A stretch of 64,000 nucleotides of DNA from assembly GCA_003194485.1 (NCBI GenBank), contig PQXD01000011.1, positions 6,093 through 70,092 on the forward strand, in the 5' to 3' direction. Within the stretch, counting starts at the first letter, position 1. Each line of letters opens with the position of its first letter. The DNA comes from Deltaproteobacteria bacterium. GTDB taxonomy: Bacteria > Desulfobacterota > Dissulfuribacteria > Dissulfuribacterales > UBA3076. A program made the position numbers and the translations under genes. This document shows, in pieces, positions 3,365 through 63,992 of the stretch. The notes beneath the pieces were generated by a model that saw only the letters and a program-made list of their open reading frames with translations, was not told where the DNA came from and ran no database searches.

Positions 3365-3440
3365 TGATTTGGGATTGGAGGAGGTAACAGCATTGTGCCA
3401 CAATGCGTCCTTCCTTTCAAATGAAAAAGATTAAGGAGTG

Positions 3441-3636
3441 GTAAATATTCGGTGAGCCCGTGGTCCACTGTGGAAGTTGCCATCCGTGCCCTGCCGCAGG
3501 AGCGGTTTGCCTTTTGCAGGGTTTTGGGTAGCGGGCCGGATTGCACTGCCTCTCCGGTCTGCGATGAGTGAGCTTTGAAACCCGGAAAAAGGTAACCGCT
3601 TCAAGGCGGGATATAACGGGTTCACCGAATATTTAC
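3441..3636 (-). mobile_element. MITE copy A (196 bp, complete)
   Basis: TIRs GTAAATATTCGGTGAGCCCGT / ACGGGTTCACCGAATATTTAC. Perfect 8-bp TSD AAGGAGTG at 3433-3440 and 3637-3644. Confidence 0.9.
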
Positions 3637-3654
3637 AAGGAGTGTGCGACATTG

Positions 3655-4201: not shown

Positions 4202-4276
4202 AGTCATCCTTAATCAGGGCATTCTTACAAATGGTTCTCAATAACAAGAAGCATCCAATTTGTCAACAAAAAACAG
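4202..4276. repeat. ~75-bp direct repeat, left copy (partner at 6749-6824), bracketing the TA islet
   Basis: AGTCATCCTTAA..CATT..TCAATAACAA.AA.CAT..CAAT.TGTCAA..AAAA.CAGG is shared with 6749-6824, roughly 70-75% identical by eye. Confidence 0.5.
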
Positions 4277-4316
4277 GCCGAACCAGCAATTCTAATTATG
4301 ACGAATAAGGAATTTA

Positions 4317-4557
4317 GCCACAGACCCACGCGAACTGACACGGACGAATCCCCGGCCGACCCCAGTTAAACAGGCTTCGCATTTAACTGGGCCGACTCGG
4401 CCGGCGATTCATGTCATGCCCTTCGGGCAATATTTGCAGTATTATTGCCAGTTTAGAGTTATGAAGCAACACATCTTTTTTCGCGAAGCGACTATATAAT
4501 CTGTTCGGCTGACCAAGCCGAACAGATTGGCTGTGTTCGTCTGTGTGGGTCTGTGGC
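4317..4557. repeat. ~240-bp element bounded by inverted repeats (GCCACAGACCCAC...), with internal hairpins
   Basis: Left end GCCACAGACCCACGCGAACTGACACGGACGAA (4317-4348) against right end TTCGTCTGTGTGGGTCTGTGGC (4536-4557). Inner hairpins CCAGTTAAA..TTTAACTGG and CTGTTCGGCT..AGCCGAACAG. Confidence 0.5.
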
Positions 4558-4599
4558 TGGCACATTATCCCAAAATGAGGATTGCTGAGCAATACGGAC

Positions 4600-4628
4600 T
4601 TGACAAGTTGTAAAAGTAGGGATATCCT
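4600..4628 (+). promoter_or_regulatory. Putative sigma70 promoter of vapBC with an overlapping near-palindrome
   Basis: TTGACA (4600-4605), 17-nt spacer, TATCCT (4623-4628). TAGGGATATCCTA overlaps the -10. AAGGAG RBS lies upstream of the ATG at 4669. Confidence 0.4.
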
Positions 4629-4668
4629 ATTTTGTAGGAAAAGACGCTGAAGTAAAGGAGATGATAAA

Positions 4669-4932
4669 ATGTACGCCAGGATTTCAAAAAAAGGTCAGGT
4701 AACGGTACCTAAGCTGATAAGAGAAAGACTGAAGATAGATACAGAAGGCGGAATATTGTTTTTGATTGAGGATGATGAGGTTAAGCTTAAAGCGGCCCCA
4801 GGTGCACCGGTCGAGATTTTAGCAGGAAGCCTCAAAAAATATGCTAAGGATTATGTTCCTCTGAAAAAAATAAGGAAGAAAATCAAAGGGGAAATTGCAA
4901 ATGAAATCGCCCGAGAGGGTCTATCTGATTGA
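4669..4932 (+). CDS. vapB: AbrB/SpoVT-domain antitoxin (VapB-type)
   Basis: N-terminal MYARISKKGQVTVPKLIRERLKI is an AbrB/MazE swapped-hairpin motif. It overlaps the downstream PIN gene. Confidence 0.8.
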   Translation: MYARISKKGQVTVPKLIRERLKIDTEGGILFLIEDDEVKLKAAPGAPVEILAGSLKKYAKDYVPLKKIRKKIKGEIANEIAREGLSD

Positions 4933-5311
4933 TACCGATGTCATTCTCAGGTATCTTCTGGGAGATCATCCTGAGTTCAGTCCAAAAGCTGAATCATTTA
5001 TGAAGGATGTCTCTGAAGGGAGAAAAAAAGCCGAGATACTGGATGTTGTTACTGTCGAATGTATCTATGTTCTGGGAAAATACTATCAGGTTTCCAAGGG
5101 TGAAATTGTAGAGAAATTAAGTGGGATATTGAATTTCTCAGGGATTGCAAATTCGAACAGGGCGGAGACGCTCACAGCATTGGTAAAATACAGAGACTCA
5201 AATATTGATATCGTAGATTGCATCCTGGCAGCAAAATCTTCTCCATCGAAGCTTATCGTTTCATTTGACAGAGACTTTGAAGAATTGAAAGCGGTTACGG
5301 AAAGCCCTTAA
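4895..5311 (+). CDS. vapC: PIN-domain toxin (VapC-type)
   Basis: VYLIDTDVILRYLLGD, with conserved acidic residues (..ECIYVL.., ..DIVDCILAA..SFDRDF). The start could instead be the ATG at 4901. Confidence 0.8.
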   Translation: MQMKSPERVYLIDTDVILRYLLGDHPEFSPKAESFMKDVSEGRKKAEILDVVTVECIYVLGKYYQVSKGEIVEKLSGILNFSGIANSNRAETLTALVKYRDSNIDIVDCILAAKSSPSKLIVSFDRDFEELKAVTESP

Positions 5312-5316
5312 AAATC

Positions 5317-5607
5317 TCAAAAACTGTATCTCAACCTCAGATAGGCCGTATCATTATCCTCAAATTGGCCCAGGCGGGAATTTTTGGGGCCGATGAAGGT
5401 CATATATCCAGGGGCAATTTGCCAGTGGTCGCCGATCTTGTATTCTGCAAAGATCTCAGCGGCCGCCCCCTCATTCCTGCCTGTGCGTCGCACGCAGACA
5501 GGGCTGGTAAAGTACATACCCCGAAAGCCTGCTGACAGGTCATCATCAAGAAACTTGTCGTTGATCTCAAATGTGATGCCGTGGGTCTTGGCTTGACAAT
5601 TTATCAA
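5317..5607 (-). pseudogene. C-terminal remnant of an outer-membrane beta-barrel protein
   Basis: 96-aa ORF ending ...DTAYLRLRYSF (alternating beta-strand pattern, terminal Phe). It has no N-terminal part or signal peptide and is squeezed between two TA modules. Confidence 0.35.
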
Positions 5608-5629
5608 ATGATAGCATATAATATGCTAT
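5593..5629 (+). promoter_or_regulatory. Putative sigma70 promoter plus a perfect 19-nt palindromic operator of dinJ-yafQ
   Basis: TTGACA (5593-5598), 18-nt spacer, TATAAT (5617-5622). ATAGCATATAATATGCTAT (5611-5629) is a perfect palindrome over the -10. Confidence 0.5.
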
Positions 5630-5656
5630 ACATGAAAAGCTAAAGGAGGCGGTAAG

Positions 5657-5920
5657 ATGGGCACGACAAAAACAAGTTCAGCCAGGGCTTTACTGGACCC
5701 TGAAGTCAAAAAACAGGCTGAAGCCATACTTAAAGAATTAGGGCTGTCAGTTTCAAAATCATTCGAGTTGTTTTACCGGCAGGTTATTGCCCATCGTGGA
5801 TTACCGTTTGAACTTCAGGTGCCAAACGAAAAAACGATGAAGGCGATTGAGAACTCCAGGCAAGGTAAGGGTAAAAAATTTTCTACAGCTCAAGAACTGT
5901 TTGATGATCTCGAAATTTAG
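5657..5920 (+). CDS. dinJ: RelB/DinJ-family antitoxin
   Basis: LDPEVKKQAEAILKELGLSVSKSFELFYRQVIAHRGLPFEL is the typical DinJ RHH fold. RBS AAGGAGG upstream. Confidence 0.85.
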   Translation: MGTTKTSSARALLDPEVKKQAEAILKELGLSVSKSFELFYRQVIAHRGLPFELQVPNEKTMKAIENSRQGKGKKFSTAQELFDDLEI

Positions 5921-5924
5921 TAAT

Positions 5925-6194
5925 ATGAGATCGATCAGGCGTGATACACAATTTAAAAGAGACGTGAAGCGGCTAAAAAAACGTCGTAAAGATATTGAAA
6001 AGCTGAAAAACATCATTCATCGTCTGGTCAACGCGGAAAAACTGCCACCTGAAAACAAAGATCATCCACTAAAAGGAACCTTGAAAGACTGCCGTGAATG
6101 CCACATTGAACCAGACTGGCTACTTATATACCGTATTGAGGGCAGTGAACTTTGTCTTGTTCGTACAGGTAGTTATGCGGACCTGTTTGGTTAG
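5925..6194 (+). CDS. yafQ: YafQ-family mRNA interferase toxin
   Basis: MRSIRRDTQFKRDVKRLKKRRKDIEKL...HPLKG..KDCRECHIEPDWLLIY. The start is set to the ATG at 5925, 4 nt after the dinJ stop, not to the longer track ORF starting at 5847. Confidence 0.85.
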   Translation: MRSIRRDTQFKRDVKRLKKRRKDIEKLKNIIHRLVNAEKLPPENKDHPLKGTLKDCRECHIEPDWLLIYRIEGSELCLVRTGSYADLFG

Positions 6195-6233
6195 CGTAGA
6201 ATCAAAAAAATATCAGGCTGTTTGCTGACCGCT

Positions 6234-6696
6234 TACAAATAGCAGTTGCCGGGCAGTCTTCTAAGGCAGGTACGTCGGGAATTCTTCATACACATAATCG
6301 GTTTGAGGCCGAAATGCCTTGAAAAAGCGGTGGAGAACGAAGGCAGGCTATTATATCCCACCGAGAAAGCCACTTCGGTAACGCTCATCCTCTGTTTTTC
6401 CAGCAAGAGCTTTGCTTGCTCAAAGTGAAGCGAATGTTTCCTGAGACACTGGACCCAAAAACAACTGGTGAATGTTTGAATTCAAAACTGACCGCAATAT
6501 TCTGTATTATCCGGTAGTCCCCTATCCCCAGCATAAGTCCCGGCCTTAACTTGATCATGGTCATAAAACCGTTGCCGATCCCGTCGGGCCACCTCCAGAA
6601 TCCTTCGAAATTTGCTTCAGAGTCCAGGGATTCGAACGCTTCATCCACGTTTCCAAAGAGTTCCTTTCCGTTGATTGTTATTGTCTTTTGGTGCAT
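6234..6696 (-). pseudogene. AraC-family regulator remnant (N-terminal ~95 aa joined out of frame to the last HTH)
   Basis: The 103-aa ORF (6385-6696) stops. A different frame then reads ..LHFEQAKLLLEKQRMSVTEVAFSVGYNSLPSFSTAFSRHFGLKP.., the second AraC HTH. The total is far too short for an intact AraC. Confidence 0.5.
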
Positions 6697-6748
6697 GTCG
6701 ATCTCAATGCTCAGTTAAATGCTCAAATCGTCTCTCAACAATACTACG

Positions 6749-6824
6749 AGTCATCCTTAACCAAAACATTATAAAAACTGATTTTCAATAACAAAAACAT
6801 TTCAATCTGTCAAGGAAAAGCAGG
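6749..6824. repeat. ~75-bp direct repeat, right copy (partner at 4202-4276)
   Basis: See 4202-4276. Both copies lie just upstream of a minus-strand start codon (slp and the AraC remnant). Confidence 0.5.
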
Positions 6825-7893: not shown

Positions 7894-9317
7894 GATACGG
7901 TCTGATTCTCATAGGGATTTTTCTCTTTACTCTTTTTACTCTTTCTGCCCATGCACAGGACATGCGTGAAGCCGCCATCAAGGCAAAGGCCGACCGTGAG
8001 GCCGCGCTGGCTGAAGCCGGGAAAAGCGCAAAACGGATAGCCGGCAACCGTGCTTCTCTTGAGAATGAAATCTCCCGGATGGCTGCCGAGGTTAAGGGGC
8101 TCAAGGCCGATATCAAGGCCATGAGCCACCAGCTTGAAAAGCTGCGAAAAAAGAAGGCAGAGCTCGTGCAGCAGCAGTCAGGCGATGAAATGGACATGCG
8201 GGAGCTTGCCGGCACGGTAAGGGTCGTGGCCAGGGACCTGGAGGGCGTGCTTGAACAGTCCCTTTTCACTGCCCGTTTTCCGGAGCGTCTTAATGACGTC
8301 AGGCCTGTCCTGAACAAGGAGCGTTTCCCCGGGCTGGACGACATGAAGGCCCTGACCGGCCTTTTTTTTAAGGAGATGTCTCTTTCAGGGGAGGTGGTCC
8401 TGCGAAGGGATTCTTTTGTGGACCGCAGCGGGACAGTGCAGGAAGGAAATATCCTGACCATCGGGAAATTTACCGCTGCTTATGAAGCGGGCGGCGAGAC
8501 GGGTTTTCTGAATTATTCCCCGGGCAGTCATCGACTCTTTGCCCTGTCCGCACTGCCTTCATGGTCGGTGAGGAAGAACCTTTCGCAATACATAAAGGGA
8601 GAGACAGAGGACGTGACCCTCGACTTTTCCGGCGGGGCAGCGCTCCGGCAAATCACACACAGGCCTACCCTGGTTGAGCGCATAAAACAGGGAGGTCCAA
8701 TCGTGTGGCCTATTCTGGCCATTGGTGTTTTTGCGATTTTGATCGTTATCGAGCGTACTCTTTTTTTGGCCAGAGTCCACGGGAACACCGACCTGATTAT
8801 GGGGAAAGTCAATGAGCATGCTTCAGAAGGAAGATGGACGGAATGTGAGACCATAGTGAGCACCGGCCAGGGGCAGCCCTGCTGCAATGTCCTGAGATGT
8901 GGGCTGGATGCCAGGAAAGAAGACAGGGAGACCCTTGAGAGCATCCTCCAGGAAGGCATTTTGAAGGAGGTCCCTCGGCTTGAGCGATATCTGCCCGTGC
9001 TCAACATCCTGGCCGCAATTGCCCCGTTGCTGGGCCTTCTCGGCACGGTCACAGGAATGATCAGTACCTTTCACGTCATCACCCTTTACGGCACCGGGGA
9101 CCCCCGCATGATGGCAGGGGGCATTTCAGAGGCCCTGGTCACCACAATGCTGGGGCTGGCCGTGGCAATCCCCATTATGCTCGCGCACACATTCCTCAGC
9201 CGCCGGGTGGATCACGTTATCGGAGACATGGAGGAAAAGGCCGTGGCCCTGACCAATATTATAGCACGAAACGGTCACTGCAGAGATCGTCAAATAGTTG
9301 AGTCGTTAAGTCGTTGA
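7890..9317 (+). CDS. Large MotA/TolQ/ExbB-family proton-channel protein (TtpC-like)
   Basis: 475 aa with an N-terminal periplasmic coiled-coil region and a C-terminal ExbB-like channel (LAAIAPLLGLLGTVTGMISTF, GGISEALVTTMLGLAVAIP). The last 12 codons lie in interspersed repeat family 2. Confidence 0.8.
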   Translation: MRYGLILIGIFLFTLFTLSAHAQDMREAAIKAKADREAALAEAGKSAKRIAGNRASLENEISRMAAEVKGLKADIKAMSHQLEKLRKKKAELVQQQSGDEMDMRELAGTVRVVARDLEGVLEQSLFTARFPERLNDVRPVLNKERFPGLDDMKALTGLFFKEMSLSGEVVLRRDSFVDRSGTVQEGNILTIGKFTAAYEAGGETGFLNYSPGSHRLFALSALPSWSVRKNLSQYIKGETEDVTLDFSGGAALRQITHRPTLVERIKQGGPIVWPILAIGVFAILIVIERTLFLARVHGNTDLIMGKVNEHASEGRWTECETIVSTGQGQPCCNVLRCGLDARKEDRETLESILQEGILKEVPRLERYLPVLNILAAIAPLLGLLGTVTGMISTFHVITLYGTGDPRMMAGGISEALVTTMLGLAVAIPIMLAHTFLSRRVDHVIGDMEEKAVALTNIIARNGHCRDRQIVESLSR

Positions 9318-9446
9318 ATCGAAAATAAGCATGTTAAATCAGTATATTAGACCTTCAACTACATCAAGTATCCAATTTTTGTGCAAACGATAAATTCAAA
9401 CAATAATAACCACTTAACTAATCAACTACTCAACCACTTAACGAGG
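9282..9446. repeat. Interspersed repeat family 2, copy 1 (inverted relative to 47544-47666)
   Basis: AGAGATCGTCAAATAGTTGAGTCGTTAAGTCGTTGA ... AATAATAACCACTTAACTAATCAACTACTCAACCACTTAACGAGG. Its reverse complement aligns end-to-end with 47544-47666. Confidence 0.7.
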
Positions 9447-9463
9447 TTTGCACTGAATTCATA

Positions 9464-10054
9464 ATGGAACTCATTTCAAAGACATATGAATATCTCCTTC
9501 AGGGAGGACCGGTCATGGTCCCTCTCATCCTGACTTCCGTCTGGATGTGGGCGTTGATTCTGGAAAGGATGTTCTACTTTCGCCGGATGGGCCGCAGTGA
9601 TCTCAGCCTTGGAGAGGCCATTGAAGCGCTGAAAACACAAGGGGCGCCTATTAAGACCGGAGGGCTTCGCAGCAGGATCGTCAGCAGTTTTCTGAAAGGC
9701 CGTACCGGCAGAAACCGGCTGGATAAGAGCCTCATTGAGCATGGGGCCATGAAGGAGCGTCTGATGCTCAAGCGCAACCTTTCGGTCATTGCCATACTGG
9801 CCGCTGTGGCCCCGCTCTTTGGTCTTTTGGGTACAGTTACCGGGATGATGACCACCTTTGACGTGATAGGCATATTCGGCACGGGTAACGCCAAGGCTAT
9901 GGCAGGGGGCATTTCAGAGGCCCTTATCACCACCCAGAGCGGTCTACTGGTGGCCATCCCGGGGCTGTTTATGAGCGAGATGCTCAATCGCAGGAATAAC
10001 CGCCTGGAAGGCAGCCTGGATGAACTCGTGTTGACGCTCAAGAGGTATGTGTAA
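9464..10054 (+). CDS. exbB: ExbB/TolQ proton-channel protein
   Basis: 196 aa with three TM segments. LAAVAPLFGLLGTVTGMMTTF and GGISEALITTQSGLLVAIP. Confidence 0.9.
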   Translation: MELISKTYEYLLQGGPVMVPLILTSVWMWALILERMFYFRRMGRSDLSLGEAIEALKTQGAPIKTGGLRSRIVSSFLKGRTGRNRLDKSLIEHGAMKERLMLKRNLSVIAILAAVAPLFGLLGTVTGMMTTFDVIGIFGTGNAKAMAGGISEALITTQSGLLVAIPGLFMSEMLNRRNNRLEGSLDELVLTLKRYV

Positions 10055-12322: not shown

Positions 12323-12484
12323 TAACTTGTGATGAAGTACTGGCAACTTCAGCGGATGTGCTGGGTGTGCTCTGCCGCTTTGTTGCTACTACAGGGAAAA
12401 AACAGGTAAAGCCGGACAGGCTAAATGTAAAAAAACGACCTACTTCACAAGTCAGGTATCCTATAGCATTGGGAAACACAACAC

Positions 12485-12527
12485 AAAAAATAAGGCGCTG
12501 GTCAAGATAATGAACCAGCGCCTTTTT
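12485..12527. terminator. Bidirectional rho-independent terminator (TPR gene and porin 1)
   Basis: GGCGCTGGT-caagataatga-ACCAGCGCC (12494-12522), flanked by an A-run on one side and TTTTT on the other. Confidence 0.7.
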
Positions 12528-12561
12528 GATGAATGAAATTATTTAGGATAGATAGCTCTCT

Positions 12562-13809
12562 TTAGAATTCGACAGCTAATTGACCGAAGACCAGATCTCG
12601 CGTGTCTCTGTCATCAGCATCGTTATCATCATACTCGTCATACATATAGCCCACTGACAGGATTGTATTGTCAAAGATTTCCTGGTTGAAGTTGATCCCA
12701 TAACGATCTTCTGGTAATCCCAGGCCCCCGCAATCGCTGGAGCCGGCATACTTAAGGGCGATTTCGAGATTTCGCCACCAGTTGTAATTATACCCAATCT
12801 CAAAGTTCCATACTTCTGGCCTTGCGGCAGCGTTACCGTCACTGCCAGTATACAACTCTCCATGACCAAATTCTTCAGTGGCCGCCATATACTCTGCATC
12901 AAGGAAAATGCCCTGATAGCCAACATGGAAATATGCATCAGCACCGCCCACGTAATCTTCAATGTCGCCTACCAATGCGCCCTCCATACTGCAATCTGAA
13001 TCAGCGATATTGGAAATATATGAACCCCCGATAAGCATGTCTAAACCATAAGTTTCATTTTCAAAGGTATAGTTGGCGTCGAAACCATAACTTTCAATAA
13101 CATTGTCACTGCTGCTATCTTCTTCTACATCACCATTATAGGTGTACGCTGAAACTGTGAAACCTTTCCATTCAGCTCCGATCAACACGGCCTTTTCGAG
13201 TACCTCACCAAGCATCACTGTAAGAGGTGTATCGAGGAAGGGATCATCCGGGAAATGTTCAAAGAGCGCACCAAAAGGCACATACATCTTACCAGCTTTC
13301 AGAAAAGCGGGTATTTTTTCCGTATTTCCAATGGTGATAAATGCCTCGTCAATGTCCACACTTGTCTCGTCGTTGTCAAAGGTCGGATCCTCATAAAGCA
13401 GGACCATTTCCGCATTGACCCAATCATTGACCTCTGCCGCAATTCCGAGTTGAACAGTAGTCATGCAAAGATCGCTGTCCTTTTCATGGCCCCCATCCTT
13501 CATATCAATACTTTGATATGCTACTCCAAACTCAAGCAGGCCATTGATTGTGATGTGGTCTTCCAGGTCAGACAGAAAGCCGACACCTTCGGCACGCGAA
13601 GGTTCCGGGACCGCCTTCATTTCATTGAGTTGCTGTTCTACTTGCTTAAGTCGATCAGCGAGTGCCCGGTTTTGCTGGATCAACTCCTGCACCTGTTGAT
13701 CCAGGTTCCCCTCTCCTGCCAGAGAACTCGATACCCAGGAAACCGCTGCCATGGACACAATGCACAAGCCTAACAACAGAGCTCTCAAGATTTTAAAATA
13801 CATGACCAT
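12562..13809 (-). CDS. Outer-membrane porin with an N-terminal coiled coil (paralog 1)
   Basis: Signal peptide, coiled coil (NLDQQVQELIQQNRALADRLKQVEQQLNEMK), then an acidic beta-barrel ending ..LVFGQLAVEF. Confidence 0.75.
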   Translation of the reverse strand: MVMYFKILRALLLGLCIVSMAAVSWVSSSLAGEGNLDQQVQELIQQNRALADRLKQVEQQLNEMKAVPEPSRAEGVGFLSDLEDHITINGLLEFGVAYQSIDMKDGGHEKDSDLCMTTVQLGIAAEVNDWVNAEMVLLYEDPTFDNDETSVDIDEAFITIGNTEKIPAFLKAGKMYVPFGALFEHFPDDPFLDTPLTVMLGEVLEKAVLIGAEWKGFTVSAYTYNGDVEEDSSSDNVIESYGFDANYTFENETYGLDMLIGGSYISNIADSDCSMEGALVGDIEDYVGGADAYFHVGYQGIFLDAEYMAATEEFGHGELYTGSDGNAAARPEVWNFEIGYNYNWWRNLEIALKYAGSSDCGGLGLPEDRYGINFNQEIFDNTILSVGYMYDEYDDNDADDRDTRDLVFGQLAVEF

Positions 13810-14065: not shown

Positions 14066-14142
14066 TTCTATTTTATAAGACCAAAATGGCAATTGAAGAA
14101 AGTCGGAAGAGAGAAAGGATGGAGATCAAGATAACACAACAC

Positions 14143-14180
14143 AAAAAATAAGGCGCTGGTCAAGATAATGAACCAGCGCC
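14143..14180 (-). terminator. Rho-independent terminator of porin 2 (a duplicate of the 12494 hairpin)
   Basis: Identical hairpin GGCGCTGGT..ACCAGCGCC (14152-14180), followed on the minus strand by TTATTTTTTG. Confidence 0.7.
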
Positions 14181-14219
14181 TTGTTTGCTGAGTGAAATTA
14201 TTTAGGATAGATATAATCT

Positions 14220-15476
14220 TTAGAATTCGATGGCTAATTGACCGAAGATCAGGTCCCGTGTGTTTCGATCAAGATCATCATCTGTTGCATACTCGTCATA
14301 CATATAGCCCACTGACAGGATTGTATTGTCAAAGATCTCCTGGTTGAAGTTGATCCCGTAACGATCCCTCGGCAGCCTTAAAGATCCGCAATCGTCGGAT
14401 CCTGCATACTGAAGGGCGATTTCGAGATTTCTCCACCAGTTGTAGTTGTATCCCGCCTCAATGTTCCAGACTGTTGGCTTACCTAAATCTTCCCCCTCCA
14501 CATTTACGTGATCAACAGCCGCCATATACTCTGCCTCAACGAAGAGGCCCTGATAGCCAACGTGTAAGTAGGCAGCAGCGCCTTCCGCGTAATCATCAAT
14601 TTCCAAGTCGTAGTGGTCCAGCACTTCCTCTGTCCAGTCGGAGTCGGCTATATTTGAGATATATGAGCCACCGACGAGCAAGTCTAAACCAAGGTCCTCA
14701 TCCTCAAAGGCATAGTTGGCATCGAAACCATAAGTTTCAATAACATTGTCGCCGCCGCCGGCCTCCTCTACGTCACCGTTGAAAACATAGGCTGAAACCG
14801 TGAAACCTGCGTATTCAGCTCCGATTACCAGGGCTTTTTCAAGTGTCTCACCCAGGAGCAGGGTAAGGGGTGAATCAATGCCCATGTCATCCGGAAAATG
14901 CGTCAGGAGTGCGCCAAAGGGCACATACATCTTGCCTGCCCTCAGAAAACCCGGTGTTACGTCTGGATTTGCTATAGTAATAAATGCCTCCTCTACATCA
15001 AAGTTTGTCTCATCATCTCTAATGTCCTCATAAGTGTTTATTGCTCCAGACGGATCTTCAAAAAGCAGAATCATTTCCGCACTTACCCAGTCATTGATCT
15101 CCGCTTCAATCCCGAGTTCAACACTAGTCATCGAAATGTCACTGTCATGTTCAAAACCACTATGGTTCATGTCAGTGCTGTGGTACGCTGCTCCAAACTC
15201 AAGCAGGCCATTGATTGTGATGTGGTCTTCCAGGTCAGACAGAAAGCCGACACCTTCGGCACGCGAAGGTTCCGGGACCGCCTTCATTTCATTGAGCTGC
15301 TGCTCCACTTCCGTAAGTCGATCAGTGAGTGCCCGGTTTTGCTGGATCAACTCCTGCACCTGTTGTTCCAGATTTCCTTCTTCTGCCAGAGAACTCGATA
15401 CCCAGGAAACCGCTGCCATGGACACAATGCACAAGCCTAACAACAGAGCTCTCAAGGTTTTAAAATACATGACCAT
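14220..15476 (-). CDS. Outer-membrane porin with an N-terminal coiled coil (paralog 2)
   Basis: Collinear with porin 1 and ends ..LIFGQLAIEF. The start is set to the ATG at 15476 (MVMYFK.., GGGGAGG RBS), matching paralog 1. The track ORF starts at 15485. Confidence 0.75.
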   Translation of the reverse strand: MVMYFKTLRALLLGLCIVSMAAVSWVSSSLAEEGNLEQQVQELIQQNRALTDRLTEVEQQLNEMKAVPEPSRAEGVGFLSDLEDHITINGLLEFGAAYHSTDMNHSGFEHDSDISMTSVELGIEAEINDWVSAEMILLFEDPSGAINTYEDIRDDETNFDVEEAFITIANPDVTPGFLRAGKMYVPFGALLTHFPDDMGIDSPLTLLLGETLEKALVIGAEYAGFTVSAYVFNGDVEEAGGGDNVIETYGFDANYAFEDEDLGLDLLVGGSYISNIADSDWTEEVLDHYDLEIDDYAEGAAAYLHVGYQGLFVEAEYMAAVDHVNVEGEDLGKPTVWNIEAGYNYNWWRNLEIALQYAGSDDCGSLRLPRDRYGINFNQEIFDNTILSVGYMYDEYATDDDLDRNTRDLIFGQLAIEF

Positions 15477-15538
15477 CCTCCCCATTCACTTAATAAGTTG
15501 TTGTGATTCATTTAGAAAAAACCCAAAACCCGAATAGT

Positions 15539-19238: not shown

Positions 19239-19298
19239 CTTTCTTCAAAAAATGTGCGCTATCGAATTGAATACGGATGCTGAAAACGGAAATTCGAA
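19239..19298. repeat. Interspersed repeat family 3, copy 1 (partner at 35357-35417)
   Basis: CTTTCTTCAAAAAA.GT.C..TATC.AATTGAATACGGATGCTGAAA.CGGAAATTCGAA is shared between the two loci. Confidence 0.55.
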
Positions 19299-19526: not shown

Positions 19527-19695
19527 CCTGCCTTGGAGCGGTTACCTTTTTCCGGGTTTCAAAGCTCACTCATCGCAGACCGTAGAGGCAGTGCAATCCG
19601 GCCCGCGATCGAAACCCTGCAAAAGGCAAACCGCTCCTGCGGCAGGGCACGGATGGCAACTTCCACAGTGGACCACGGGTTCACCGGATATTTAC
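19527..19695 (+). mobile_element. MITE copy B (left ~30 nt, including the TIR, is missing)
   Basis: Homology starts at CCTGCCTTGGAGCGG and runs to an intact right TIR ..ACGGGTTCACCGGATATTTAC. No TSD is detectable. Confidence 0.8.
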
Positions 19696-21226: not shown

Positions 21227-21291
21227 GATTCAATAGATTAGGGTCTGGATATAAAAGTGCAATATTAAAAAACGCTTAAGCAACAGTTTGA

Positions 21292-21486
21292 GTAAATATT
21301 CGGTAAACCCGTTACATCCTGCCTTGGAGCGGTTACCTTTTTCCGGGTTTCAAAGCTCACTCATCGCAGACCGGAGAGGCAGTGCAATCCGGCCCGCGAT
21401 CGAAACCCTGCAAAAGGCAAACCGCTCCTGCGGCAGGGCACGGATGGCAACTTCCACAGTGGACCACGGGTTCATAGAATATTTAC
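21292..21486 (+). mobile_element. MITE copy C (195 bp, complete)
   Basis: Both TIRs are present. Perfect TSD CAGTTTGA at 21284-21291 and 21487-21494. Confidence 0.9.
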
Positions 21487-21616
21487 CAGTTTGACTATCT
21501 CTTCTGTCTTTTATCAGAAATTTTGTGGAGGGAAAATACTTTTATGTGCGTTGACACATTGTACCATGGGAAGATATAGTGATTTAGTTAATCCAAAACA
21601 GGAAGGGGGGATACCC

Positions 21617-21808
21617 TTGGCGATTGTGGTAGAAGTCCAGGAAAACCTGGAAAAGGCCCTCAAGGTGCTAAAGAAAAAGATGCAGCTTGACGGGCTTCAG
21701 CGGGAACTGAAAAATCGTCGCTTTTACGAAAAACCGAGTGTAAAAAAACGACGCAAGATGCAAGAGGCCGAACGCAGACGTCGCAAAGCCCGACGCAGAC
21801 GTCGCTGA
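21617..21808 (+). CDS. rpsU: 30S ribosomal protein S21
   Basis: ..VVEVQENLEKALKVLKKKMQLDGLQRELKNRRFYEKPSVKKRRK.. A TTG start at 21617 follows a GGAAGGGGGG RBS. The upstream part of the track ORF (from 21491) is not S21-like. Confidence 0.85.
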   Translation: MAIVVEVQENLEKALKVLKKKMQLDGLQRELKNRRFYEKPSVKKRRKMQEAERRRRKARRRRR

Positions 21809-21827
21809 TGATCTGATTTAATTATTT

Positions 21828-21854
21828 AAAGAGCCAGACTTGATCTGGTTCTTT
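21828..21854 (+). terminator. Putative terminator after rpsU
   Basis: AAAGAGCCAGA-cttga-TCTGGTTCTTT. Confidence 0.45.
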
Positions 21855-21922
21855 AACTTGACAGCGAATGCTCACACTCCCCGGCAGAAAATGGATATTA
21901 CGACATTATGTTATAATATTAT

Positions 21923-21999
21923 TGGGGTGAGCGATGGGAATCGAACCCACAGCCTTCGGGGCCACAACCCGACGCTCTAGCCGTTGAGCTACGCCCACC
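21923..21999 (-). tRNA. tRNA-His (GTG)
   Basis: Cloverleaf folded by hand. It has the G-1 extra base, acceptor GTGGGCG/CGCTCAC, anticodon loop TTGTGGC, T-loop TTCGATT, and an encoded CCA. Confidence 0.9.
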
Positions 22000-22052
22000 A
22001 CTGATTTTGATACAATATCATATATCTTTTGGGCAAGGAAGAGATCTTGCAA

Positions 22053-22129
<77 letters not shown>

Positions 22130-26110: not shown

Positions 26111-26179
26111 TACCTTTTCAATCAACAATAGTTTAAGATAATATGTAACTGTTTGCGGATGGAAACTTGAAATTGGAAA

Positions 26180-26582
26180 GTAAATATTCGGTGAACCCGT
26201 TATATCCTGCCTTGAAGCGGTTACCTTTTTCCGGGTTTCAAAGCTCACTCATCGCAGACCGGAGAGGCAGTGCAATCCGGCCCGCTACCCAAAACCCCGA
26301 AAAAAGGCAAACCGCTCCTGCGGCAGGGGGCACGGATGGCAACCGTTCACTGGAGGGGATATTTCTTTGAACAGTTTAACGGAAGCCCCCGTAGTTTTCT
26401 CGGCTTTTGCTGTGGGGAAAACTGCATCGCCTGAGCGCAGCGTAAGGCGAATGCAGAGGGGGCAGGACATCCCCCATGTCAAAGGCCTTAAGAAAACAAG
26501 GGGCTGAAGTGTGAAGTGAAAAGAAATATCCCCTTCCCGTGAACGGTTTGCGGAATGGACTACGGGTTCACCGGATATTTAC
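26180..26582 (+). mobile_element. MITE copy D, 403-bp composite (long) form
   Basis: The outer TIRs are those of the family. Perfect TSD ATTGGAAA at 26172-26179 and 26583-26590. An extra ~205-bp internal segment is bounded by inside-out TIR-like inverted repeats (26343-26365 and 26523-26546). Confidence 0.9.
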
Positions 26583-26627
26583 ATTGGAAATCCGTGTATG
26601 TGAATGAGATTAAGGAGTTGCCATTTA

Positions 26628-35328: not shown

Positions 35329-35344
35329 TTCACCGGATATTTAC
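35329..35344. repeat. Solo MITE terminal repeat remnant
   Basis: TTCACCGGATATTTAC is an exact 16-nt match to the family's right TIR, with no element body attached. It lies 17 nt upstream of the DUF503 start. Confidence 0.55.
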
Positions 35345-35356
35345 CACTGGTTTGCA

Positions 35357-35417
35357 CTTTCTTCAAAAAAACGTACATTATCAAATTGAATACGGATGCT
35401 GAAACTGGAAATTCGAA
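35357..35417. repeat. Interspersed repeat family 3, copy 2
   Basis: See 19239-19298. Confidence 0.55.
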
Positions 35418-35469
35418 ATTAGGCAACATATCTGCATCTTTTTGTTTTCCCCAATTTCAAATTTCACAT

Positions 35470-35873
35470 GTAAATATCCGGTGAACCCGTAGTCCATTCC
35501 GCAAACCGTTCACGGGAAGGGGATATTTCTTTTCACTTCACACTTTAGCCCCTTGTTTTCTTAAGGCCTTTGACATGGGGGATGTCCTGCCCCCTCTGCA
35601 TTCGCCTTACGCTGCGCTCAGGCGATGCAGTTTTCCCCACAGCAAAAGCCGAGAAAACTACGGGGGCTTCCGTTAAACTGTTCAAAGAAATATCCCCTCC
35701 AGTGAACGGTTGCCATCCGTGCCCCCTGCCGCAGGAGCGGTTTGCCTTTTTTCGGGGTTTTGGGTAGCGGGCCGGATTGCACTGCCTCTCCGGTCTGCGA
35801 TGAGTGAGCTTTGAAACCCGGAAAAAGGTAACCGCTCCAAGGCAGAATATAACGGGTTCATAAGAATATTTAC
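35470..35873 (-). mobile_element. MITE copy E, 404-bp composite (long) form, inverted relative to copy D
   Basis: The reverse complement differs from copy D at about 6 positions by eye. Perfect TSD TTTCACAT at 35462-35469 and 35874-35881. The right TSD contains the infB stop codon. Confidence 0.9.
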
Positions 35874-35875
35874 TT

Positions 35876-38659
35876 TCACATTTCTTTCTCTCTGGCATCA
35901 GATATAGATTCTCCGAGGACAGGGGTTTCTTCTCTCATTATATAAGTCTCTATTATGTCCCCTGTCTTTATGTCATTGAACTTTTCAAGGCCTATTCCGC
36001 ATTCATACCCGGCCTGGACTTCTTTCGCGTCTTCTTTGAAGCGACGAAGAGATGCTATCTTGCCTTTATAAGTTACCACGTTGTCTCTTAAAAGCCTGGC
36101 CTTGGCATTTCTTTTGATCAAGCCTTCCAGCACATAGCACCCTGCCACTGTACCGACTTTGCCAATGTGGAAGACGTCACGAACCTCGGCGCGTCCCATG
36201 GGCTCTTCCCTGTAGACAGGTTCAAGCAAACCTGCCATGGCATCTTTAATTTCCTCAATGGCATGGTAAATGACATCGTAGAAGCGGATGTCCACATGTT
36301 CATGTTCAGCTAAGGCCTTTGCCTGTGGGCTGGGCTTTACATTAAAGCCTATGATGCTGGCATTTGAAGCAGATGCCAGCAAGACGTCGGATTCAGTGAT
36401 GGCCCCGATACCGCTCCTGACGAAATTTACCTTTATCTCTTGGGTACTGAGCTTGTGCAGTGCCTCTGCAAGGGCCTCCACAGAACCCTGAACATCAGCC
36501 TTGAGCACTATATTGAGTTCCTTGAGTTCCTCCTCCCGGAGTCTTTCAAAGACATTTTCCAGACTTACTTTGCTGCTCCTGAGCAGTTCCTTCTCTCTTA
36601 TCTTGCGCTGGCGATACTCAGCCACCTCTCTGGCCTTCTTGTCGTCAGAAAGTACCGTGAATTCGTTTCCTGGCTCAGGCACGCCGGAGAGACCCTGGAT
36701 TTCCACTGGCATGGAGGGACGGGCAGCCTTTATCCTTTCATCCTTGTCGTTGAGCATGGCCCTCACTCTGCCGTGATGTATACCACAGACGAGAGCGTCA
36801 CCTATATGCAGTGTACCTTCTGAGACCAAAAGGGTAGCCACGGGACCACGCCCTCTGTCCAGCTTGGCTTCTATCACGTGACCTCTGGCAGGCCGCTTGG
36901 GATCTGCCTTGAGCTCCATCACCTCGGCCTGGAGGGCCATCATCTCAAGCAGTTCTTCTATTCCCGTTTTTTCTTTGGCAGAGATGTTGATGCAAATGGT
37001 CTCTCCGCCCCAATCCTCAAGAACTAATCCCAGTTCAGAAAGTTGCCTTTTTACTTTTTCCGGATTAGCCCCCGGCTTGTCGATTTTGTTGATTGCTACA
37101 ATGATAGGGACCCCGGCTGCCCGGGCGTGATCTATGGCCTCATGTGTCTGGGCCATTACACCGTCATCCGCCGCTACCAGCAGTATCACGATATCAGTAA
37201 CCTTGGCTCCGCGAGCCCTCATGGCTGTGAATGATTCATGGCCCGGGGTGTCCAGAAAGACTACCTCCTGACCAAAGGGAAGTGTGACATGATATGCGCC
37301 TATATGCTGGGTGATGCCGCCTGCCTCCTTTGAAGCCACATCTGCTTTACGGATGGCATCCAGGAGCGTGGTCTTTCCATGATCTACGTGGCCCATGATT
37401 GTGACCACAGGGGGTCTTGGCACAGGCTCGCCCTCCCGGACATCCTCTGTGTGGACCAGGTCCTCAGCCACAGACTTCTTCTCCAGTTCATAGTCAAACC
37501 CAGAGGCCACGATGCTGGCTACGTCGTAATCGACAGACTGATTAACTGTGGCCATTACGCCCAGGTCCATGAGCTTCATTATGACGTCTCCCGCCCTGAC
37601 GCCCATCCGCTTGGCAAGCTCACCCACCTGAATAGTCTCGTATATGGCAAACCTTCGTTTGCCTGCCTTGGGAGGGGCGGTACTGGGCTTAAGGACAACT
37701 TCCTCCTTTTGTGCTGAATCGCCGTAATCCCTGGAAATTTCCTTTTTTTCCCGGCCGGATACTGTTATATCAATCTCCTCCGCAAGAATTTTGTTTATAT
37801 GTTTCTGTTTTTCCTTCCACTTCGGAGTAACCCGGCGTTTTTTGAGCGGCTTTTCCAACTCCGACATCTGGACTACTCTCTTGCCCTTCTTTTTGCTTTT
37901 TTTTTCAGGAACTGCAGAGATATCAATTAAGGGAACCGGCGGTTCCTTAGAGAGTTCATCCGGATGGAGAGGTAATGTGGTCCGGCGAGCATGGCTTTCT
38001 GGTTTATCGTTTTTTTGACGGGAGATTTTAATCCTCGGCAGATCGAGGATCTTTACAAAGCTTTCGGGTTTATCAGCCCTGGTCTTTTTTACAGTCTTGG
38101 GTTTATGGGTGGTCTCGGGCAGAGCAGGCTGTTTTTCAGGTACAGATTCTTTATCTGATCCTGATGCAGTTCCGGTTACCTCCTGTCCGGATTCGATTTC
38201 TGGCCGTTCTCTTTCAATAGTCGGGGCTTCCTCCACGGCCTTAATTTCTTCCTCTTTCCCGGCGACAGGAGCAGCCCCCTGCACCTCTTCTTCTGTTCCC
38301 GCAGCCTTATCCGGTTTATCTGTAGTAGTTTCTGGTTCTGCCTCAACTGGTTTTTCAGCCTCTTTTCTCTGTACCTCGACAATAGTCTCGCCTTTAGTCT
38401 CAGTTGAACGAACGATTTTTTTGAGGATAATTTTCCGGTGCCTGAGACGCACCGTGGTTTTTGGCTCGGCCTCCTGCTTTTTCTTTGCCGCCGCATGCGC
38501 CTCACCCCTCAGTTTGCGGCGGATATCCCGGGCCTCATAGTCCTCAAGTGTACTCATATAATTCTTGATGTTGTAGCCAAGATCAATAATCTTGGCCGCC
38601 ATCTCTTTACTGGCTACCCCGAATTCTTTGGCCAGCTCATGAACTCTGATTTTAGTCAT
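35876..38659 (-). CDS. infB: Translation initiation factor IF-2
   Basis: 927 aa. [18 protein letters not shown], and NKID. Confidence 0.95.
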
Positions 38660-40713: not shown

Positions 40714-40789
40714 TGGAGCGGGCGACGGGGTTTGAACCCGCGACCCCAAGCTTGGGAAGCTTGTACTCTACCAACTGAGCTACACCCGC
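40714..40789 (-). tRNA. tRNA-Gly (CCC)
   Basis: Acceptor GCGGGTG/CGCCCGC, anticodon loop TTCCCAA, T-arm GCGGG-TTCAAAC-CCCGT, and an encoded CCA. Confidence 0.9.
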
Positions 40790-40907
40790 CTGTAATCTGT
40801 ATTATATTAAGAATAAAATAAAAAATGTCAAGAATTTCGAGAAGGTAACGCCCGGAAATCTATTTTATTTAAGTGCTCATTATTTCAACAATAACCGTTT
40901 ATGATCC

Positions 40908-41088
40908 ATAAATATCCGGTGAACGGTTGCCATCCGTGCCCTGCCGCAGGAGCGGCTTGCCTTTTTACGGGGTTTTGGGTGGCGGGCCGGATTGCACTGC
41001 CTCTCCGGTCTGCGATGAGTGAGCCTTGAAACCCAGAAAAAGGTAACCGCTCCAAGGCAGGATATAACGGGTTCATAAGAATATTTAC
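40908..41088 (-). mobile_element. MITE copy F (181 bp, a short variant)
   Basis: One TIR is ATAAATATCCGGTGAACGG, and the arm lacks the ~18-nt GGTCCACTGTGGAAG segment. Perfect TSD TATGATCC at 40900-40907 and 41089-41096. Confidence 0.88.
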
Positions 41089-41104
41089 TATGATCCATGA
41101 GAGG

Positions 41105-43939: not shown

Positions 43940-43970
43940 CCGGCACACACCGGCTTCATATAAATCGAAA

Positions 43971-44171
43971 GTAAATATTCGGTGAACCAGTTATATCCTG
44001 CCTTGGAATGGTCACCTTTTTCCGGGTTTCAAAGCTCACTCATCGCAGACCGGAGAGGCAGTGCAATCCGGCCCGCTACCCAAAACCCCGTAAAAAGGCA
44101 AACCGCTTCCGCGGCAGGGCACGGATGACAAATGCAAGGCACAGTGGACCTCGGGTTCACCGGATATTTAC
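43971..44171 (+). mobile_element. MITE copy G (201 bp, complete)
   Basis: Perfect TSD AATCGAAA at 43963-43970 and 44172-44179. Confidence 0.9.
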
Positions 44172-44309
44172 AATCGAAATAGCCCTGAAACACCTGATGA
44201 AAGTCCCCCCCTACGGACAATATTGTTGTGGCCGTATTCGTATGATTGCAGCCTCCACTGACCATGCCCGACTGCGAAGATGATCTCTCTCGCCCAAAAA
44301 AATAATATG

Positions 44310-46948: not shown

Positions 46949-47016
46949 GCACCGATTTTCACAGATACAAAATAAGGCACCAGGAGCAATTTGCGTCAGG
47001 CTTTTGAATGTCGCGA

Positions 47017-47211
47017 GTAAATATTCGGTGAACCCGTTATATCCTGTCTTGGAGCGGTTACCTTTTTCCGGGTTTCAAAGCTCACTCATCGCAGACCGGA
47101 GAGGCAGTGCAATCCGACCCGCGATCGAAACCCTGCAAAAGGCAAACCGCTCCTGCGGCAGGGCACGGATGGCAACTTCCTCAGTGGACCACGGGTTCAC
47201 CGAATATTTAC
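47017..47211 (+). mobile_element. MITE copy H (195 bp, complete; reference copy)
   Basis: TIRs GTAAATATTCGGTGAACCCGT / ACGGGTTCACCGAATATTTAC. Perfect TSD TGTCGCGA at 47009-47016 and 47212-47219. Confidence 0.92.
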
Positions 47212-47251
47212 TGTCGCGAAACATGGAAAAATAAAAGGAGATTATACGTTA

Positions 47252-47536
47252 GTGAAGATAACTGTCTCTCAAATTGAACATATGGCCCACTTGGCACGGC
47301 TCAGCTTTAACCCATCTGAAATTGAGGACTTCAGCAAACAACTGAACGACATTTTAGGATATATAGGCAAATTAGAAGAACTGGATACCAGCCGGGTTGC
47401 ACCTGCTACTCATGCCCTGGAGTTCACGAATGCCTTTAGAAGAGATGAAGTAAAACCCTCATTGCCGGTTGAAAAAACGCTCTCTAATGCACCGGAACGG
47501 GAAAGGAGGGGGTTTGTGGTGCCAAAAATTATCTAA
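47252..47536 (+). CDS. gatC: Asp/Glu-tRNA amidotransferase subunit C
   Basis: GTG start after an AAGGAG. ..IEHMAHLARLSFNPSEIEDFSKQLNDILGYI.. Confidence 0.9.
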   Translation: MKITVSQIEHMAHLARLSFNPSEIEDFSKQLNDILGYIGKLEELDTSRVAPATHALEFTNAFRRDEVKPSLPVEKTLSNAPERERRGFVVPKII

Positions 47537-47543
47537 TTACAGC

Positions 47544-47666
47544 CCTCGTTAAGTGGTTGATTAGTTGATTCGTTAAATAGTTATTATTATATAACTTCTC
47601 AATAAGTTCGGGCAAATCATATTTTCCGACTCAACGACTCAACGACTTAACTATTTGACGATCTCT
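47544..47666. repeat. Interspersed repeat family 2, copy 2
   Basis: CCTCGTTAAGTGGTTGATTAGTTGA ... TCAACGACTCAACGACTTAACTATTTGACGATCTCT. It fills the gatC-gatA spacer. Confidence 0.7.
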
Positions 47667-47684
47667 GAATTGAGAAAGTGCAAA

Positions 47685-56688: not shown

Positions 56689-56762
<74 letters not shown>

Positions 56763-56892
56763 GATGAGCTGATAGGAATCGCTTTTTGCGATTTGGGCCG
56801 AAGAGGCACTCCCAAGCACCACACACTGATTTCTATAGCATTATTGGAAACTCCGGGTCAAGAAAAAAGTAAGGAATATCTGCAGTGTCTGT

Positions 56893-57063
56893 GTAAATAT
56901 CCGGTGAACCCGTTATATCCTGCCTTGAAGCGGTTACCTTTTTCCGGGTTTCAAAGCTCACTCATTGCGGACCGGAGAGGCAGTGCAATCCGGCCCGCGA
57001 TCGAAACCCTGCAAAAGGCAAACCGCTCCTGCGGCAGGGCACGGATGGCAACCTCCACAGTGG
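56893..57063 (+). mobile_element. MITE copy I (right end decayed or truncated)
   Basis: The left TIR and body are intact up to ..CCACAGTGG. The following sequence is only vaguely TIR-like up to ~57108. No TSD. Confidence 0.8.
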
Positions 57064-57227
57064 GCTACCGATTCCGGCATCAGGCGGGATTTGGCGATAT
57101 TATTAAACAGGGCATGCGAAAAAAATCAAAAAAAAATCCGTTAAAAGATTAAAGTATGTATAATGTTTTGCCGAAAAATAAAATACCTCCTTAGAATGGC
57201 TTCTCAAAGCCCTTCTTCTCCTCTTGT

Positions 57228-63875: not shown

Positions 63876-63992
63876 GCCCTTTGTTTTATAAAGCTTTTGC
63901 AGCGGGGGATTCCTGCCCCCTCCCCGTTCTCCTTCGCTTCGCTCCGGAGCCGGGGTTTCCCCCGCTGCAAAAGCCGATAAAACTTACAGGGC
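63876..63992. repeat. ~117-bp palindromic element next to the window edge
   Basis: Perfect 17-bp arms GCTTTTGCAGCGGGGGA (63893-63909) and TCCCCCGCTGCAAAAGC (63958-63974). Imperfect pairing extends outwards (GCCCTTTGTTTTAT.. against ..ATAAAACTTACAGGGC), and there are nested inner stems. Confidence 0.55.

Follow-up and report, generated by a model that had tools for sequence, protein, structure and literature searches.

A family of miniature inverted-repeat elements in a Desulfobacterota genome shares its termini with IS66-family transposase elements

A 64,000-nucleotide stretch of a Desulfobacterota contig (PQXD01000011.1, assembly GCA_003194485.1; this whole stretch is called the window) contains nine copies and one solo end of a short foldback element bounded by perfect terminal inverted repeats (TIRs) of 20-21 nt, GTAAATATYCGGTGAACCCG(T). 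The family has no coding capacity and combines its TIRs with target-site duplications (TSDs) of fixed length and variable sequence, with empty sites, and with termini also found on autonomous elements, all traits of a miniature inverted-repeat transposable element (MITE). We consider it very probable that the copies form a non-autonomous MITE swarm moved in trans by an IS66-family transposase. An earlier sequence-only reading of the window had offered the IS66 family as a guess. That assignment has now been tested, because elements with the same terminus encode IS66-family transposases and make 8-bp TSDs.

Target duplications and empty sites

Thirteen sites in the window match the 21-nt terminus with three or fewer mismatches, against none expected from 100 shuffles. 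Coordinates, lengths and orientations of the nine copies were checked by extraction and by full-length alignment or BLAST (Table 1). The sequence-only reading had counted the same copies and placed eight of them correctly; the decayed copy beginning at 56893 runs to about 57074, not 57063. The elements are 181-404 bp long and show no similarity to IS66 transposases. The 195-bp unit at 47017-47211 opens with GTAAATATTCGGTGAACCCGT, closes with ACGGGTTCACCGAATATTTAC and has TGTCGCGA on each side. All seven complete window copies are flanked by a perfect 8-bp TSD, with a different 8-mer at each site and exactly the 8-mers that had been read from the letters. Beyond the window, a metagenome scan with a 26-nt internal motif recovered at least 119 contigs (911 kb, 147 motif matches), and all figures for further copies rest on the contigs listed from that scan. 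At least 64 further distinct insertion sites with both ends were found among them; 41 of the 64 listed have an 8-bp TSD with at most one mismatch (8/8 positions at 29 sites and 7/8 at 12), and another seven agree at 6/8.

Empty sites in relatives were found by orthology and by paralogy. The copy at 35470-35873 sits inside a conserved operon, between infB and the gene for a DUF503 protein. This site is unoccupied in L137 and L138, whose DUF503 protein is 85% identical and where the two genes lie 3 bp apart, and also in L139-L143 (81% identity), where a 129-bp spacer homologous to the window spacer lacks the element. The 81%-identical relative is comparable by synteny only from rimP to the dUTPase gene, so that the sites at 26180, 40908 and 43971 fall outside the comparison. 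A second orthologous site, occupied in L261 (8339-8736, TSD ATGCCAGA), is empty in L142 and L143. As a paralogous case, TTGAATGT flanks the L191 element on both sides and a single CTGAATGT is present in L217. In L202 a short-form MITE interrupts a member of the palindromic-module family described below, of which many other copies are uninterrupted. Compared with the spacer of the relatives, the solo end is 14 nt of inserted sequence. This fits an old insertion and a later deletion, presumably with the terminal GGTGAA and a native GGTGAA as its end points. Together with the TSDs at the seven window sites and the 41 further ones, the two orthologous empty sites and the paralogous sites with a single 8-mer bear out the claim, first made from the letters alone, that the family carries the signature of transposition.

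Palindromes of high copy number in intergenic positions, as here, might also be spread by recombination or by a RAYT (REP-associated tyrosine transposase) enzyme of the IS200/IS605 type, in the manner of repetitive extragenic palindromic (REP) elements and bacterial interspersed mosaic elements (BIMEs), and signs of gene conversion between the long copies (98.8% identity between 26180 and 35470, and about 95% to the L192 copy at the 35470 site) point the same way. REP elements are 20-40 nt long and make no target duplication, whereas the present element has TIRs, is flanked by 8-bp TSDs at the majority of its sites, and shows only one 8-mer where a site is empty. No Y1 or RAYT-like gene was found in the window by Pfam. 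We regard the chance of such an origin as close to negligible, in agreement with the dismissal of a REP element in the sequence-only reading.

The 195-nt unit folds back on itself stably, both as DNA (-51.4 kcal/mol, z = -7.6) and as RNA (z = -7.9 and -9.2 for the two strands). The strength of the RNA fold on both strands is one reason for considering a multi-copy structured RNA gene, or a cis-regulatory RNA such as a terminator or riboregulator. A conserved RNA gene had been discounted from the letters alone. Among 29 sites between co-directional genes, the element lies in the orientation of the genes at 20 and opposite at 9, a difference that rests on crude ORF (open reading frame) calls and is not significant; tRNA genes are also found 119-440 bp away from three of the window copies. 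Rfam returned nothing at the gathering score, with matches at chance level only at E values up to 1, and promoter and terminator scans were likewise at chance level. Over 49 copies the RNAalifold covariation term was -0.01 and only three of 64 pairs showed a double change, while substitutions in diverged copies break pairs. The polymorphic pyrimidine/purine positions of the two termini combine randomly (UG 13, UA 12, CG 12, CA 12): the T or C at position 9 of the left end is random with respect to its right-end partner, and the ends are therefore not co-selected as a helix. Since the TSDs and empty sites require insertion, we consider an RNA gene highly improbable; the mild trend in orientation leaves room for secondary effects on transcription.

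Coding elements bounded by the same terminus

A scan of 185,579 species-representative genomes for exact GTAAATATYCGGTGAACCCG returned at least 120 stretches, whose record titles name Beta-, Gamma- and Alphaproteobacteria, Bacillota, Elusimicrobia, Spirochaetes, Acidobacteria, Brocadiaceae and Desulfobacterota. A single ORF of 560 aa lies between termini spaced 1799 bp apart, and ORFs of 583 and 362 aa lie between termini spaced about 2.68-2.70 kb apart. The large ORFs are IS66-family DDE transposases (PF03050, E = 2e-57 and 1e-54), scoring 281 and 290 bits with the NCBIfam model NF033517, 'IS66 family transposase' (cut-off 180). The 362-aa ORF matches Pfam DruA/DUF4338 at 3e-42 and, weakly, the PADLOC DruA model; DUF4338 has been read as a GNAT-like domain (PMC10853773). 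About 200-240 nt of the 362-aa ORF coincide with the 3' end of tnpC. The tnpA and tnpB genes of the canonical IS66 group are absent from the TIR-sharing elements, which carry TnpC alone or, mostly, TnpC with the DUF4338/DruA-like ORF. No solved structure was found for a TnpC or DUF4338 protein.

The coding elements also duplicate 8 bp. Perfect 8-bp TSDs flank seven of the 13 complete transposase-encoding elements scored (L005, L014, L019, L063, L102, L062 and L104), and the ends of these TSD-flanked elements all begin GTAAAT. One metagenome-assembled genome (MAG) from a proteobacterium contains six intact tnpC-only copies of 1.8 kb, with identical transposases in four and 99.6% identity in two; five of the six have perfect 8-bp TSDs. 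The transposases of L005 and L012 are 40% identical yet have the same 20-nt terminus, although the identity of the terminus across elements is partly a matter of ascertainment, because the exact 20-mer was searched. Thus the guess at IS66 in the sequence-only reading proved sound, in the sense that the 20-nt terminus bounds PF03050/NF033517 elements making 8-bp TSDs, which belong to a divergent branch and were seen in other organisms. The longer transposase-bearing element for which that reading suggested a search exists in other genomes, in 1.8-kb and 2.7-kb forms, and was found in neither the window nor the 911 kb of MITE-bearing contigs.

Because 8-bp TSDs are made by several IS families (ISfinder family tables), the MITE could have been moved by one of the others, such as IS1595, ISL3, IS6 or IS256, with its IS66-like ends coincidental or convergent. 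The lack of an IS66 transposase in about 1 Mb of host sequence would agree with this. The match over 20 of 20 nt at both termini is with elements whose only transposase is PF03050/NF033517, and it cannot be chance; about 70 of the 120 terminus loci listed hold TnpC and/or its partner, the DUF4338 gene, directly inside the terminus; and Pfam found no transposase of any family among the window ORFs. We therefore judge mobilisation by another family very unlikely and retain IS66.

Independent short elements that share the termini and have perfect 8-bp TSDs occur in Sulfuricellaceae (132-133 bp), in Elusimicrobia (136 bp) and in Desulfofundulus thermosubterraneus (107 bp). Their presence in several lineages implies that this type of terminus has produced MITEs repeatedly. 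Exact matches to the terminus were absent from 2.9 million viral contigs. A parent from which the window MITE might have descended by internal deletion was also sought, and none was found, as its interior has no similarity to the TIR-sharing coding elements. In the searchable literature, the terminus sequence occurs in no paper, and neither a description of an IS66-linked MITE nor a paper linking IS66 with DUF4338 was found; the accessions of the samples are likewise cited in no paper.

Copies, variants and neighbouring features

Every window copy is intergenic, as had been noted before, according to ORF analysis and to gene calls on matching metagenome contigs. The window ORFs are housekeeping in character by Pfam: cobN, an exbB/tonB cluster, an infB-rbfA-truB-rpsO-pnp operon, thrC, feoAB, gatCA, lgt and uvrD. 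Only short ORFs overlap the copies. They recur because the repeat itself recurs, in line with the earlier reading of them as spurious.

The long form consists of the short form plus a nested 205-bp palindromic module placed about 35 bp from the right end. A subfamily variant of the left terminus, GTAAATATTCTTATGAACCCG, is present in the copies at 35470-35873 and 40908-41088, and the latter, 181 bp long, seems to have arisen from the long form by deletion. The copy at 43971-44171 is the most diverged short form in the window (87% identity to the copy at 47017). At 3441 the sequence duplicated by the insertion, AAGGAGTG, resembles a ribosome-binding site (window 3433-3644). A tRNA-Gly gene lies 119 bp downstream of the copy at 40908-41088 (window 40714-41088) and a tRNA-Gln gene 131 bp downstream of that at 56893-57074 (window 56689-57074), and a tRNA-His/Arg pair is found about 440 bp from the copy at 21292-21486 (window 21292-22129).

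Table 1. Copies of the element in the window, and elements elsewhere with the same terminus
Feature	Position or locus	Strand	Remarks
Short-form MITE, complete, 196 bp	3441-3636	-	TSD AAGGAGTG at 3433-3440 / 3637-3644; between CobN-like and Slp lipoprotein genes
Short form, left terminus lost (first ~26 nt gone)	19527-19695	+	TSD not scorable
Short-form MITE, complete, 195 bp	21292-21486	+	TSD CAGTTTGA at 21284-21291 / 21487-21494
Long-form MITE, 403 bp	26180-26582	+	Module 26343-26548; TSD ATTGGAAA at 26172-26179 / 26583-26590
Solo terminus TTCACCGGATATTTAC	35329-35344	.	Within 14 nt that are lacking from the orthologous spacer in related species
Long-form MITE, 404 bp	35470-35873	-	infB stop to DUF503/rbfA; TSD TTTCACAT at 35462-35469 / 35874-35881, includes infB TGA stop
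181-bp derivative	40908-41088	-	Long-form junction GGCAACCGTTCAC joined to right terminus; TSD TATGATCC at 40900-40907 / 41089-41096
Short-form MITE, complete, 201 bp	43971-44171	+	TSD AATCGAAA at 43963-43970 / 44172-44179
Short-form MITE, complete, 195 bp	47017-47211	+	Perfect 21-nt TIRs; feoB-gatC gap; TSD TGTCGCGA at 47009-47016 / 47212-47219
Copy with left terminus intact, right terminus lost	56893-57074	+	From alignment; right limit approximate
tnpC-only elements, 1799 bp	L005, L008, L014, L019, L063, L102		
Elements of 2.65-2.80 kb	L012:3340-6019; also L030, L062, L091, L104, L086, L119		
Independent short elements, 107-136 bp	L011:1066-1198, L053:3803-3935, L064:2250-2381, L042:338-473, L069:7092-7227, L103:12-147, L087:3474-3580		

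Nine copies in 64 kb amount to about one per 7 kb, a high density that is comparable to that of other MITE-rich bacteria. At least about 70 distinct sites are documented; hundreds of copies genome-wide would be an extrapolation. The lengths of elements at the further sites listed fall into clusters of 194-197 bp and 395-404 bp, and the short and the long form have therefore both spread. No target consensus beyond A+T richness was found at the insertion sites. Among 49 short copies the mean pairwise identity is 93.8%, and the mean distance of a copy from the consensus is 3.8% (range 0.5-9.3%), the substitutions being 326 transitions and 37 transversions; the proliferation looks old because of this mean distance from the consensus.

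Contigs 98.8-99.9% identical to the window were found in JGI 3300022552, JGI 3300025156, several ENA assemblies and NCBI GCA_029935835.1, and no difference in the presence or absence of a MITE insertion was found among strains at least 98.8% identical. Many of the window-matching contigs end inside the MITE repeat. The GTDB MAGs B4_G9 (Thermodesulfobacteriota, Guay9 scaffolds) and GMC6_bin_6_sub are 99.1-99.9% identical to MITE-bearing JGI contigs, the closest named organism in an NCBI search for the window DUF503 protein is Dissulfurirhabdus thermomarina (69% identity), and a Seep-SRB2 MAG holds a 202-bp copy (L033) that is 84% identical to the window family and has the 8-bp TSD GGACAGTC. We infer that the host is an uncultured member of the Desulfobacterota from hydrothermal or seep sediments of the Guaymas type.

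At the infB site, two groups of strains agree in the place and orientation of the element but differ in its TSD. TTTCACAT is present on both flanks in the window, L121 and L133 (left flank only in L136), and TTTCCAAT on both flanks in L192 (9049-9056 / 9457-9464; left flank only in L122-L124 and L134). The reverse complement of TTTCCAAT is ATTGGAAA, and ATTGGAAA is the 8-mer duplicated at the other long-form copy, 8.9 kb distant and inverted. The long forms at 26180 and 35470 in the window show 98.8% identity to each other; against the L192 copy at the infB site, each shows about 95%. These identities suggest gene conversion between the long-form copies, in which both flanking 8-mers would have changed together; alternatively, the same 8-bp target at the infB site may have been hit twice. 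In the group with TTTCCAAT the TGA stop of infB is lost, and infB would end at the TAA inside the GTAAAT terminus of the element. A separate difference between strains was seen at L127:3640-3960, where a long-form-like copy occupies the site of the 181-bp window copy 40908-41088; the divergence begins inside the element and reflects either a repeat-mediated rearrangement or an assembly chimera.

Further repeats are present in the window. The palindromic module, about 205 bp long, forms a second family: it is nested at 26343-26548 and 35504-35709 and occurs separately at 63876-63984, where it is cut by the window end. Its inverted ends (CCGTTCACTGGAGGGGATATTTC...) resemble the core of the MITE terminus, and diverged modules (70-78% identical) stand alone. 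A third small repeat of about 130-170 bp, with ends CCTCGTTAAGTGGTTGA... and ...CAACGACTTAACTATTTGACGATCTCTG, is present at 47535-47668 and 9275-9446 in mutually inverted orientation. Its gatC-gatA copy is missing from L127, which is 99.3-99.8% identical to the window, so that close strains are polymorphic for this insertion. Two places in the window share a 52-nt intergenic sequence at 87% identity (19247-19298 and 35366-35417); the second copy, within the infB-DUF503 spacer, is conserved in L139-L143, and the sequence may be a regulatory or leader motif. The window also contains tandem paralogous genes (12475-13809 and 14133-15485; 74-86% identical DNA), one with a weak match to porin O/P and each followed by the same 53-nt terminator-like sequence, and, at 4202-6824, a small toxin-antitoxin island whose toxin ORFs are of the PIN-domain and YafQ/ParE types; a direct repeat of 76 nt, its two copies 75% identical, marks the edges of the island (4202-4277 and 6749-6824).

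Mobilisation in trans and comparison with known systems

Several observations weigh against mobilisation by an IS66 transposase, at least in the present host and at the present time. First, tblastn searches of the window and of the 911 kb of contigs with MITE copies, using two TnpC proteins of the IS66 family and the DUF4338 protein as queries, detected no IS66-type transposase; the absence of any transposase from the window had already been noted in the sequence-only reading, and the Pfam survey of the window agrees with it. Second, the interior of the MITE is unlike that of any same-terminus coding element, and only MITE copies (L040, L033 and L023) matched it. Third, identity between the TIR-sharing transposases and characterised plasmid members of the IS66 family is only about 28%, the best matches being ISKpn24, ISEc22 and ISSfl3, and the TIR-sharing transposases are not accompanied by tnpA or tnpB. 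Finally, there is no evidence of present-day mobility: strains at least 98.8% identical share their insertions, and the copies have drifted from their consensus as described above.

Every terminus in the 911 kb adjoins one of the MITE's own two end types. We regard the family as non-autonomous and mostly old, because no transposase was found, the ends belong only to MITEs, the interior is unrelated to that of the coding elements, and close strains have their insertions in common. An IS66-type transposase would have acted in this host, as judged from partner elements that come from other organisms. Its activity was probably mostly ancient, and the partner may be rare, lost or foreign. The mechanism that we propose begins with a DDE transposase of the IS66 family (TnpC type), which, provided in trans, would bind both termini and move or copy the element. 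The target would be cut with an 8-bp stagger, the repair of which would yield the 8-bp duplication, and selection would leave only insertions in short intergenic gaps. Several sublineages, including the short form (~195 bp) and the long form (~400 bp, with its nested palindromic module), would have spread in this way to many sites. Point mutations, loss of ends and deletions between microhomologies would later erode the copies, leaving the truncated copies, the 181-bp derivative and the solo end. The biochemical steps follow general knowledge of DDE transposases.

The termini and the TSD length of the window family are those of the IS66 family, and the TIR-sharing relatives lack the canonical three-gene layout. 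These relatives fit either ISBst12-like elements or a new subgroup with TnpC and DUF4338, and the elements with TnpC and the DUF4338/DruA-like protein may be an undescribed IS66 subgroup. A broader proposal, doubtful when all its parts are taken jointly, is that the 20-nt terminus marks an undescribed IS66 branch crossing phyla, in which a DUF4338/DruA-like protein beside TnpC replaces TnpA and TnpB. Under this proposal the ends would have remained the same even as the transposases drifted apart to about 40% identity, MITE families would have been spawned independently in at least four lineages, the present swarm would have been mobilised by a transient transposase visiting horizontally, and Druantia DruA would have common ancestry with a transposon accessory protein.

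The MITE family explains the assembly breaks every few kilobases in this member of the Desulfobacterota and the recurrent spurious ORFs in its annotation, and serves as a lineage marker, as in the 84% identity to the Seep-SRB2 copy. Since insertions occur inside conserved operons, one of them at the infB stop where the element supplies the stop in one strain group, they may affect expression. The family links a MITE cleanly to the IS66 family, which is poorly understood, and the two 20-bp ends of the element offer a minimal substrate for studying IS66-type transposition; the TnpC and DUF4338/DruA-like elements in turn link the signature domain of Druantia to a transposon. The swarm is well supported and not surprising in principle, and current understanding is not overturned by it.

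Classical IS66 ends are of the GTAAGCG type, from which the terminus GTAAATATTCGGTGAACCCG differs. Like the IS66 family and its ISBst12 group, the window element has ends beginning GTAA and TSDs of 8 bp, and a single-transposase (tnpC-only) form of 1.8 kb exists among the elements with the same terminus. It differs from them in having no gene at all, and most same-terminus elements differ from the IS66 family in carrying a DUF4338/DruA-like second gene, none having tnpA or tnpB. ISDge4 belongs to the ISBst12 group within the IS66 family; its ends are GTGACT/GTAACT, it makes an 8-bp direct repeat and it transposes experimentally, and the mechanism of IS66-type transposition is described as insufficiently characterised (PMC12898284).

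Among bacterial MITEs, MITEPsy1/2 (PMC3189936) and the 240-bp MITE of Cardinium (PMC9769881) were compared. Together with Correia in Neisseria, RUP in pneumococcus and Nezha in cyanobacteria, these are likewise intergenic foldback elements of 100-400 bp with TIRs and fixed-length TSDs, present in tens to hundreds of copies with subfamilies and nested or composite forms. Their partners are of the IS630, IS5 or IS200/IS605 type or unknown, with TA or other TSD lengths, and the present family differs from them in that their mobilising family is not IS66. With the REP/BIME-RAYT systems the window element has in common that it is an abundant intergenic palindrome that breaks assemblies. REPs are much shorter, do not combine TIRs with TSDs and depend on a Y1 HUH enzyme; the window element, in contrast, has TIRs, TSDs and empty sites.

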